A DNA stretch of 64,000 nt, taken from Escherichia coli (lineage in GTDB: Bacteria; Pseudomonadota; Gammaproteobacteria; Enterobacterales; Enterobacteriaceae). This document shows, in pieces, positions 11,269 through 28,719 of this stretch (position 1 is its first letter; each line of letters opens with the position of its first letter). The notes beneath the pieces are model-generated. The model saw nothing but the letters and a program-made list of their open reading frames with translations, had not been told where the DNA came from and searched no databases. The position numbers were made by a program, and so were the translations under genes. Where the stretch lies: assembly GCF_024502345.1 (NCBI RefSeq), contig NZ_JALDNN010000001.1; one strand, given 5' to 3'.

Positions 11269-11353
11269 TTATTGTTTTTCACGACAGTAACCGCACCTAC
11301 ACTGTCATGACATTGCTCGCCCCTATGTGTAACAAATAACCACACTGTGAATG

Positions 11354-24726: not shown

Positions 24727-25008
24727 ATGGCTACCCTCACCACTGGCGTGGTTCTTCTTCGCTGGCAACTTCTTAGTGCCGTAATGATGTTTCTGGCCAG
24801 CACACTCAACATCCGTTTTCGTCGGTCTGATTATGTCGGGCTTGCGGTGATCAGCAGCGGTCTGGGCGTTGTTTCCGCCTGTTGGTTCGCAATGGGGTTG
24901 CTTGGCATCACAATGGCGGACATCACCGCTATCTGGCACAACATCGAGTCGGTGATGATAGAAGAGATGAATCAGACACCGCCACAATGGCCAATGATTT
25001 TGACCTGA
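24727..25008 (+). CDS. yjcB: small inner-membrane protein of unknown function
   Basis: 93-aa reading from MATLTTGVVLLRWQLL... with two hydrophobic segments; position next to ssb. Confidence 0.75.
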   Translation: MATLTTGVVLLRWQLLSAVMMFLASTLNIRFRRSDYVGLAVISSGLGVVSACWFAMGLLGITMADITAIWHNIESVMIEEMNQTPPQWPMILT

Positions 25009-25014
25009 TACGTA

Positions 25015-25043
25015 GAAGCCTCCATAACGGAGGCTTCTTTTTT
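25015..25043 (+). terminator. intrinsic terminator downstream of yjcB
   Basis: gaagcctcc ataac ggaggcttc followed by T6. Confidence 0.75.
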
Positions 25044-25106
25044 ATGGCTGGCAGATGCTTTAATCATCCACCTTAAAACAATATAACCTATTGTTTTAAT
25101 GACAAA

Positions 25107-25643
25107 TCAGAACGGAATGTCATCATCAAAGTCCATCGGCGGCTCGTTAGACGGCGCTGCCGGAGCGGACTGCTGCGGGCGAGACTGCGCGCCGCCGCTG
25201 AACTGATTGCCACCCTGCAGCTGCTGAGGCTGACCCCAACCGCCCTGCGGCTGACCACCACCGATATTGCCACCTGCCGGAGCGCCACCACCCTGACGAC
25301 CACCCAGCATCTGCATGGTGCCGCCAACGTTCACCACGACTTCTGTGGTGTAGCGATCCTGACCGGATTGATCGGTCCATTTACGGGTACGCAGCTGACC
25401 TTCGATATAAACCTGAGAACCTTTACGCAGATATTCGCTCGCCACTTCTGCCAGTTTGCCGAACAGCACAACGCGGTGCCATTCAGTCTGTTCTTTCATC
25501 TCGCCGGTCGCTTTATCACGCCAGGATTCGGAAGTAGCCAGCGTAATGTTGGCAACTGCGCCACCATTTGGCATGTAGCGTACTTCCGGGTCCTGACCCA
25601 GATTACCAACGAGAATAACCTTGTTTACGCCTCTGCTGGCCAT
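25107..25643 (-). CDS. ssb: single-stranded DNA-binding protein
   Basis: 178 aa from [28 protein letters not shown]..., Gly/Gln-rich linker and acidic C-terminus DFDDDIPF. Confidence 0.97.
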
Positions 25644-25793
25644 GTTCGTGTCTCCTGAAAAAAATCGTTCTGAATAAGTGTAAACGCGCGATTGTACCAT
25701 TACCAATAGCGCTTTTACTATGTTGTGACCTCGGTTCCGGGAAACAAACCTGGCCAGACATTGTTACACAACACTCCGGGTAATGCATTCCAA

Positions 25794-25813
25794 TACTGTA
25801 TATTCATTCAGGT
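25794..25813. promoter_or_regulatory. LexA (SOS) box shared by divergent ssb and uvrA promoters
   Basis: tactgtatattcattcaggt fits CTGT-N8-ACAG-type SOS box; about 85 bp upstream of uvrA ATG. Confidence 0.85.
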
Positions 25814-25896
25814 CAATTTGTGTCATAATTAACCGTTTGTGATCGCCGGTAGCACCATGCCACCGGGCAAAAAAGCGTTTAATCCGGGAAAGGTGA

Positions 25897-28719
25897 ATGG
25901 ATAAGATCGAAGTTCGGGGCGCCCGCACCCATAATCTCAAAAACATCAACCTCGTTATCCCCCGCGACAAGCTCATTGTCGTGACCGGGCTTTCGGGTTC
26001 TGGCAAATCCTCGCTCGCTTTCGACACCTTATATGCCGAAGGGCAGCGCCGTTACGTTGAATCCCTTTCCGCCTACGCGCGGCAGTTTCTGTCACTGATG
26101 GAAAAGCCGGACGTCGATCATATTGAGGGGCTTTCTCCTGCCATCTCAATTGAGCAGAAATCGACGTCTCATAACCCGCGTTCTACGGTGGGGACAATCA
26201 CCGAAATCCACGACTATTTGCGTTTGTTGTTCGCCCGCGTCGGCGAACCGCGCTGTCCGGACCACGACGTCCCGCTGGCGGCGCAAACCGTCAGCCAGAT
26301 GGTGGATAACGTGCTGTCGCAGCCGGAAGGCAAGCGTCTGATGCTGCTCGCGCCAATCATTAAAGAGCGCAAAGGCGAACACACCAAAACGCTGGAGAAC
26401 CTGGCAAGCCAGGGTTACATCCGTGCTCGTATTGATGGCGAAGTCTGCGATCTTTCCGATCCGCCGAAACTGGAACTGCAAAAGAAACATACCATTGAAG
26501 TGGTGGTTGATCGCTTCAAGGTGCGTGACGATCTTACCCAACGTCTTGCGGAGTCGTTTGAAACCGCGCTGGAGCTTTCCGGTGGTACAGCGGTAGTGGC
26601 GGATATGGACGACCCGAAAGCGGAAGAGCTGCTGTTCTCCGCCAACTTCGCCTGCCCAATTTGCGGCTACAGTATGCGTGAACTGGAGCCGCGACTGTTT
26701 TCGTTTAACAACCCGGCAGGTGCCTGCCCAACCTGTGACGGCCTTGGCGTACAGCAATATTTCGATCCTGACCGCGTGATCCAAAACCCCGAGCTGTCAC
26801 TGGCTGGCGGTGCGATCCGTGGCTGGGATCGCCGCAACTTCTATTACTTCCAGATGCTGAAATCGCTGGCAGATCACTATAAGTTCGACGTCGAAGCGCC
26901 GTGGGGCAGCCTGAGCGCGAACGTGCATAAAGTGGTGTTGTACGGTTCTGGCAAAGAAAACATTGAATTCAAATACATGAACGATCGTGGCGATACCTCC
27001 ATCCGTCGTCATCCGTTCGAAGGCGTGCTGCACAATATGGAGCGCCGTTATAAAGAGACAGAATCCAGTGCGGTACGTGAAGAATTAGCCAAGTTTATCA
27101 GCAATCGCCCATGCGCCAGCTGCGAAGGGACGCGTCTGCGTCGGGAAGCGCGCCACGTTTATGTCGAGAATACGCCGCTGCCTGCTATCTCCGACATGAG
27201 CATCGGTCATGCGATGGAATTCTTCAACAATCTCAAACTAGCTGGTCAGCGGGCGAAGATTGCGGAAAAAATTCTTAAAGAGATCGGCGATCGCCTGAAA
27301 TTCCTCGTAAACGTCGGCCTGAATTACCTGACACTTTCCCGCTCGGCAGAAACACTTTCCGGCGGTGAAGCCCAGCGTATCCGTCTGGCGAGCCAGATTG
27401 GTGCGGGCCTGGTTGGCGTTATGTATGTACTGGACGAGCCGTCTATCGGCCTGCACCAGCGCGATAACGAGCGCCTGTTGGGTACGCTTATCCATCTGCG
27501 CGATCTCGGTAATACCGTGATTGTGGTGGAGCATGACGAAGACGCAATTCGCGCCGCTGACCATGTGATCGATATCGGTCCTGGTGCGGGTGTTCACGGC
27601 GGTGAAGTGGTCGCAGAAGGTCCGCTGGAAGCGATTATGGCGGTGCCTGAATCGTTGACCGGGCAGTACATGAGCGGTAAACGCAAGATTGAAGTGCCGA
27701 AGAAACGCGTTCCGGCGAATCCAGAAAAAGTGCTGAAGCTGACAGGTGCACGCGGCAACAACCTGAAGGACGTGACGCTCACGCTGCCAGTCGGTCTGTT
27801 TACCTGCATCACAGGGGTTTCAGGTTCCGGTAAATCGACGCTGATTAACGACACACTGTTCCCGATTGCCCAACGCCAGTTGAATGGTGCGACCATCGCC
27901 GAACCGGCACCGTATCGCGATATTCAGGGGCTGGAGCATTTCGATAAAGTGATCGATATCGACCAAAGCCCAATTGGTCGTACTCCACGTTCTAACCCGG
28001 CGACCTATACCGGCGTGTTTACACCTGTGCGCGAACTGTTTGCGGGCGTACCGGAATCCCGTGCGCGTGGTTATACGCCAGGACGTTTCAGCTTTAACGT
28101 CCGTGGCGGGCGCTGCGAAGCCTGTCAGGGCGACGGTGTGATCAAAGTGGAGATGCACTTCCTGCCGGATATCTACGTGCCGTGCGATCAGTGCAAAGGT
28201 AAACGCTATAACCGTGAAACGCTGGAAATTAAGTACAAAGGCAAAACCATCCACGAAGTGCTGGATATGACCATCGAAGAGGCGCGTGAGTTCTTTGATG
28301 CGGTGCCAGCTCTGGCGCGTAAGCTGCAAACGTTGATGGACGTTGGTCTGACGTACATTCGCCTGGGGCAGTCCGCAACCACACTTTCTGGTGGTGAAGC
28401 CCAGCGCGTGAAGCTGGCGCGTGAGCTGTCAAAACGCGGCACCGGGCAGACGCTGTATATTCTCGACGAGCCGACCACCGGTCTGCACTTCGCCGATATT
28501 CAGCAACTCCTCGACGTGCTGCATAAACTGCGCGATCAGGGCAATACCATTGTGGTGATTGAGCACAATCTCGACGTGATCAAAACCGCTGACTGGATTG
28601 TCGACCTGGGACCAGAAGGCGGCAGTGGCGGCGGCGAAATCCTCGTCACCGGTACGCCAGAAACCGTCGCGGAGTGCGAAGCTTCGCATACGGCACGCTT
28701 CCTCAAGCCGATGCTGTAA
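25897..28719 (+). CDS. uvrA: excinuclease ABC subunit A
   Basis: 940-aa [56 protein letters not shown]... with two ABC ATPase modules and zinc-finger cysteines. Confidence 0.98.

Follow-up and report, generated by a model that had tools for sequence, protein, structure and literature searches.

To our knowledge, the uvrA-ssb region is listed in every catalogue of the Escherichia coli SOS regulon. A regulatory region common to the two genes was reportedly described by Brandsma et al. in 1983 (Nature 305:243) and 1985 (NAR 13:5095).

PMC9505508, which cites Brandsma 1983, 1985 and Fernandez de Henestrosa 2000, assigns the shared uvrA/ssb box a heterology index of 6.98, and by the literature cited there LexA binding is known for a K-12 sequence identical to the one analysed here. 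Published heterology indices of the box span 6.2-7.0, which places it among operators of medium strength. The LexA box overlaps the −35 region of uvrA, and ssb is transcribed from three promoters, of which only the most distal is LexA-repressible (PMC9505508). Upon treatment with azidothymidine (AZT), uvrA is induced 3.9-fold, with a 4.4-fold dependence on lexA (PMC11228462). SOS control of ssb is contested: in several microarray studies and in RNA-seq under AZT, ssb changed little or not at all in a LexA-dependent manner (PMC9505508, introduction; PMC11228462), and three microarray studies found no induction of the gene (PMC9505508). In Salmonella, uvrA and ssb likewise share a box, with a heterology index of 6.99, and both genes respond to nalidixic acid (PMC8072944). 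An ArcA site in the uvrA-ssb spacer was reported by Ogasawara 2005 and was not reproduced by ArcA ChIP (PMC3798270).

Here we analyse the corresponding region in a 64,000-nt stretch of E. coli DNA (hereinafter the window). The divergent ssb and uvrA genes are separated by a spacer of 253 bp, within which the 20-mer tactgtatattcattcaggt lies in the context ccaaTACTGTATATTCATTCAGGTcaatttgtgtcataatt. From the box to the uvrA ATG the distance is 83 nt, and to the ssb ATG 150 nt; measured from the end farther from ssb, the latter becomes about 170 nt. A preliminary description of the window, made by eye, had named this 20-mer as a single LexA operator shared by the two genes; its coordinates are correct to the base, and the limits that it gave for the spacer are confirmed from the two ATGs. 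Since 1983 the region has been in the literature and its recovery has no discovery value, but it serves as a positive control, in that the operator was located to the base without tools. The coordinates of all features are collected in the table.

Table. Features of the uvrA-ssb control region and of its surroundings in the 64-kb window.
Feature	Coordinates	Strand	Basis or remark
LexA operator (SOS box) TACTGTATATTCATTCAGGT	25794..25813	.	weight matrix, conservation, K-12 identity
ssb-uvrA divergent control region, 253 bp	25644..25896	.	bounded by two ATGs
ssb coding sequence, 178 aa plus stop	25107..25643	-	translation; start codon reads cat (25641-25643) on the plus strand
ssb Shine-Dalgarno AGGAG (ctcct on the plus strand), 8 nt before the ATG	25652..25656	-	sequence; invariant block in the alignment
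uvrA coding sequence, 940 aa	25897..28719	+	ATG at 25897; translation
Putative uvrA extended −10, TG-t-CATAAT (hexamer 25824-25829)	25821..25829	+	motif and conservation
Putative weak uvrA −35, TATTCA, 17 nt upstream of the −10	25801..25806	+	inside the LexA box
Candidate distal ssb promoter P1: −35 TTGACC (25816-25811), 18-nt spacer filled by the box, −10 TGGAAT (25792-25787)	25787..25816	-	weak motifs
Putative middle ssb promoter-like extended −10, TG-t-AACAAT	25760..25768	-	presumed constitutive; moderate conservation
Putative proximal ssb promoter-like extended −10, TG-g-TACAAT	25691..25699	-	presumed constitutive; in conserved island 25668-25704
lexA-dinF operon (lexA 42065-42673, dinF 40667-42046)	40667..42673	-	encodes LexA, the repressor acting on the box
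Two operators of lexA, 42680-42699 (18.6 bits) and 42701-42720 (19.1 bits)	42680..42720	.	weight matrix; just upstream of lexA
IS1 in pdeC, 9-bp target duplication AACTGTCGC	22879..23646	.	incidental to the control region
IS1 in lamB, inverted orientation, 9-bp target duplication ACCGAAGCC	51341..52108	.	incidental to the control region

A simple pattern search was of no help in evaluating the site. The pattern CTGT-N8-ACAG, with one mismatch allowed, matched 17 times in the 64-kb window, against 17.4 matches expected from shuffled sequence. Because this pattern failed to discriminate, we adopted a symmetric LexA weight matrix built from 21 E. coli LexA boxes, from which the three boxes of the window itself (the uvrA/ssb box and the two at lexA) had been left out. 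The training boxes follow the tables published by Lewis 1994 and by Fernandez de Henestrosa 2000, and this training set is the soft spot of the matrix. A matrix scan was also the check proposed in the preliminary description, and it placed the uvrA/ssb box not below threshold but at the top of the window: at 19.96 bits the box ranks first among about 64,000 positions, well inside the range of the training set itself (13.6-27.4 bits). By the exact score distribution, 0.007 sites with at least 19.96 bits are expected by chance per 64 kb, and only 1 of 300 (0.3%) first-order Markov simulations of the window reached this score. Ranks two and three are held by the two lexA operators (19.1 bits at 42701 and 18.6 bits at 42680), after which the scores drop to 12.0 bits; the scan thus returns exactly the three LexA sites already known for this stretch, and no further site exceeds the chance level. 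The runner-up inside the spacer reaches 3.0 bits, so the spacer contains a single box, as had been claimed.

Three further matches, at 11270-11289, 58305-58324 and 48833-48852, were rejected as operators, their scores of 11-12 bits and their number being what chance provides (0.6-0.9 per window). As to the location of these sub-threshold LexA-like matches, the one at 58305 overlaps the start codon of xylE, and one other sits in the nrfA-acs spacer.

Compared with the palindrome TACTG(TA)5CAGTA, the consensus as given in PMC11228462, taCTGtatattcattCAGgt agrees at 15 of 20 positions, a value tied with that of lexA box 1 as the best in the window, and ranking sites by their mismatches to this consensus gives the same order as the weight matrix. 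The box has the invariant CTG-N10-CAG core within a 20-bp imperfect palindrome, and it shows every defining property of an E. coli-type LexA operator that is accessible in silico. The earlier wording, a 'canonical LexA operator', is therefore right about the operator, given its score and rank, and too strong in 'canonical', given the five deviating positions and the published heterology index. An Rfam scan of positions 25000-26500 found no RNA family in the spacer; its two sub-threshold matches, far under the gathering scores, lie downstream of ssb.

Many complete E. coli genomes, among them K-12 derivatives such as C600, match positions 25645-25896 with 100% identity. Of the 5426 complete E. 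coli genomes, 5425 contain this stretch, with a median of one copy per genome and at least 99% identity in 5280 records. For a sample across species, we searched a collection of species-representative genomes with a degenerate pattern spanning codons 1-14 of uvrA, which yielded 120 loci. At 69 of these, all from Enterobacterales, a divergent ssb directly precedes uvrA and the two genes are 225-562 nt apart; the genera include Escherichia, Citrobacter, Salmonella, Klebsiella, Enterobacter, Kluyvera, Cedecea and Buttiauxella as well as Pantoea, Erwinia, Tatumella, Pectobacterium, Brenneria, Rahnella, Hafnia and Proteus. Exactly one matrix match of at least 12 bits is present in the spacer at 68 of the 69 divergent loci (14.6-23.2 bits), and the median score over all 69 is 19.5 bits. 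The geometry is conserved together with the site: the median distances of the box are 84 nt to the uvrA ATG and 146 nt to the ssb ATG, and the latter distance is kept within 124-168 nt in most of the 69 loci.

The one divergent locus devoid of a box of at least 12 bits belongs to an Enterobacteriaceae metagenome-assembled genome (MAG) with an unusually long spacer of 562 nt, in which the best match, CCCTGTATACAGAATCAGTT, scores 11.0 bits. At twelve other loci, from Pectobacterium, Rahnella, Hafnia, Siccibacter, Shimwellia, Rouxiella, Pluralibacter, Chimaeribacter and an unclassified Enterobacterales MAG, 131-175 nt separate the box and the uvrA ATG, compared with the usual 84 nt or so, which indicates that roughly 50-90 nt have been inserted into the uvrA leader on the gene side of the promoter. 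Outside the divergent arrangement, 40 loci have no adjacent ssb; among them, a LexA box is present 41-77 nt upstream of uvrA in 11 Vibrio species and one Zobellella. The Vibrio boxes score 21-25 bits and the Zobellella box 15.2 bits, with ssb not within 1.5 kb in either case. By the same matrix, the Alteromonas, Shewanella, Idiomarina and Glaciecola loci have no E. coli-type box within 400 nt of uvrA.

A MAFFT alignment of the 67 distinct Enterobacterales spacers allows conservation to be followed along the region. The most conserved 20-nt window of the spacer is exactly 25794-25813, the box itself, with a mean identity to our window of 0.91 compared with 0.60 for the whole spacer, and its CTG, ATAT and CAG are invariant across the 67 spacers. 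A second conserved island, 25818-25837, holds the uvrA element TG-t-CATAAT, which is nearly invariant and in which the hexamer always starts after 10 nt from the end of the box. Further islands comprise the ribosome-binding site of ssb at 25652-25656 and a block at 25668-25704.

A simple scanner for sigma-70 promoters and terminators found nothing in the spacer. Since the promoters there have weak elements or an extended −10, we placed them by a relaxed scan combined with conservation. On the uvrA side the overlap with the operator is clear: the box, ending 10 nt before the CATAAT hexamer, covers about −42 to −23 relative to a putative uvrA start near 25836. On the ssb side, the distal promoter is placed by weak motifs and partial conservation. 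An A/T-rich −10-like element adjoins the left, ssb-side end of the box in most genera; the TTGACC proposed as the −35 of candidate P1 is conserved, among the aligned Enterobacterales spacers, in Escherichia and Klebsiella only. The ssb strand thus offers three −10-like elements, in agreement with the number of ssb promoters published, although the exact hexamers proposed for each are putative.

With its operator at the top of the window and unique in the spacer, its identity to K-12, a conserved site and fixed geometry across Enterobacterales, and the cognate lexA gene in the same window, the region is almost certainly the classical control region of E. coli in which a single LexA operator lies between the divergent uvrA and ssb genes. 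It is already known, intact and ordinary, and its anatomy has nothing unusual. For the working of the region we rely on the literature for the control by LexA, for the three promoters of ssb and for the induction ratios, and fit these to the positions found here. In an undamaged cell, the LexA dimer, encoded 16 kb away in the window, would bind TACTGTATATTCATTCAGGT. At uvrA, the box would cover the weak −35 and the upstream spacer of the extended −10 promoter TGtCATAAT, so that RNA polymerase would be excluded and uvrA would stay at its basal level. At ssb, it would lie within only the most distal of three promoters, and the two promoters nearer the gene would be beyond the reach of LexA and keep the essential ssb expressed. 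Upon DNA damage, RecA on single-stranded DNA would bring about self-cleavage of LexA and the operator would be vacated; uvrA would then rise about 4-fold, and ssb modestly and only on strong induction. The about 4-fold inducibility of uvrA and the weak response of ssb would thus follow from the placement of the box, which overlaps the −35 of uvrA and only the most distal ssb promoter.

The same asymmetry admits a stronger reading, namely that the box is functionally an operator of uvrA only, with ssb in effect constitutive and the sharing nominal. Its position gives this reading some ground, the box being nearer to the uvrA ATG than to the ssb ATG, with two conserved promoter-like elements between it and ssb; yet most of the 69 loci keep it at 124-168 nt from the ssb ATG, with the A/T-rich −10-like element adjoining it on the ssb side. 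The Vibrio species, which retain a LexA box upstream of uvrA where ssb is not adjacent, are consistent with an operator that serves uvrA. The expression data are divided in a similar manner. Under AZT, ssb is induced 1.5-fold with a lexA dependence of 1.0 (PMC11228462), and the basal ssb level in normal growth is equal in the wild type and in lexA3, in line with the three microarray studies mentioned above (PMC9505508). However, induction of ssb by UV and gamma rays is LexA-dependent by RT-qPCR and the gene is overexpressed in a constitutive-SOS mutant (PMC9505508), and Salmonella ssb is induced 9.6-fold by nalidixic acid (PMC8072944, Table 1). We consider an operator for uvrA alone unlikely and retain an operator that would act on both genes unequally. 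The term 'shared' in the preliminary description fits insofar as one box lies between the divergent genes, and misses the asymmetry of its overlap with the uvrA −35 on one side and with only the most distal of three ssb promoters on the other.

The fixed distance from the box to the uvrA −10, the constrained distance from the box to the ssb start (about 125-170 nt) and the −10-like element beside the box would also be compatible with a bolder proposal, that the distal ssb promoter is under purifying selection across the order and that SOS control of ssb is functionally important. We put this forward tentatively, as a possibility that at present seems to us more doubtful than probable. If true, SOS control of ssb might provide, for example, a reserve supply of SSB under heavy damage. 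The physiological weight of SOS control of ssb is the sole live question at this locus and is under experimental study (PMC9505508, PMC11228462); the window contributes nothing of its own to it.

The genes on either side of the spacer are close to the common E. coli alleles. The ssb counterpart in E. coli NZ_AP021890.1, in the same neighbourhood with uvrA, is annotated as ssb1. The encoded SSB is the common E. coli protein except for P142L (codon 142, 25218-25220, minus strand), a change that sits in the disordered Gly/Gln/Pro-rich linker. Only 11 of 5425 E. coli records contain the 90 bp around this codon without a mismatch, which makes it a rare allele there; P142L probably marks a lineage and is neutral. 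In UvrA, a single residue, S918T (codon 918, 28648-28650), departs from the common E. coli protein WP_000357740.1.

The surrounding gene order (soxR, soxS, pdeC, yjcB, ssb, uvrA, yjbR, yjbQ, aphA, tyrB, alr, dnaB, qorA, pspG, dusA, zur, yjbJ, dinF, lexA, dgkA, plsB, ubiA, ubiC, malM, lamB, malK, malE) is that of the standard E. coli map. The lexA-dinF operon, earlier put at 14 kb from the box, has its near end at 14.85 kb, and the lexA operators are at 16.9 kb. Two 768-nt IS1 copies, 99% complementary and inverted, flank this part of the window. The left copy interrupts pdeC, the gene of a c-di-GMP phosphodiesterase, and the right copy interrupts lamB, which codes for maltoporin (the receptor of phage lambda) and is thus reduced to a pseudogene here. 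The pdeC::IS1 junction was found as one piece in 0 of 5426 complete E. coli genomes, which suggests an IS1-rich lineage, such as Shigella, outside that set of genomes.

The interval between the two copies, given as 27.7 kb in the preliminary description, measures 27,694 nt. It was called dense in SOS-regulated and replication genes; ssb, uvrA, dnaB, lexA and dinF are indeed present, but they make up the ordinary E. coli map and not a unit. Clustering of these five genes is a long-known arrangement at about 92 min of the E. coli map. One could still read the IS1-bounded segment as a mobile or rearranged 'SOS/replication island', that is, a composite transposon or the product of an IS1-mediated inversion, since a closely matching IS1 pair brackets all five genes and the two LexA-operator regions in 27.7 kb mildly exceed the approximately 0.24 expected by random placement (P of about 0.02 for at least two, a post hoc figure). 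This reading is refuted by the separate target duplications and by collinearity and is very improbable. The duplications differ between the left (AACTGTCGC) and the right (ACCGAAGCC) copy, which hence did not arrive as the two termini of a single transposed segment and show no recombination between them; pdeC and lamB, though split, each have both halves still contiguous and collinear; and the gene order is the same as in E. coli strains without these IS1 insertions. Because each copy has its own matching 9-bp target duplication, different from that of the other, we regard the two as independent simple insertions.

That the 20-mer resembles a LexA box merely by chance, for which only the undiscriminating CTGT-N8-ACAG count might be quoted, is barely conceivable and is refuted by the matrix expectation, by the invariance of CTG, ATAT and CAG over 67 distinct spacers and by identity to the experimentally studied K-12 site (PMC9505508).

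Set beside the described systems, the locus is closest to the uvrA-ssb region of E. coli K-12, with which it shares the spacer sequence, the genes, their divergent orientation, the single box and the distances. The control regions show no difference; the strain analysed here departs from K-12 in SSB P142L and UvrA S918T, and in its two IS1 insertions, the one in pdeC lying 2 kb to the left of the control region and the one in lamB 25 kb to its right. The uvrA/ssb region of Salmonella enterica is alike in its divergent genes, its one shared box and the same conserved extended −10 after the box. It differs in the right half-site, which is TACTGTATATTCAAACAGGT in Salmonella compared with ...CATTCAGGT here, and by a matrix with uniform background the Salmonella box scores above that of the window (21.8 versus 19.6 bits). 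The autoregulatory operators of lexA are bound by the same repressor, through the same CTG-N10-CAG motif and with similar scores (18.6-19.1 bits). There, however, two adjacent boxes precede one unidirectional operon, whereas the uvrA/ssb region has one box between divergent genes. Vibrio uvrA resembles the locus in having a strong LexA box (21-25 bits) 63-77 nt upstream of the gene, but has no ssb within 1.5 kb upstream, so that its box is not shared.
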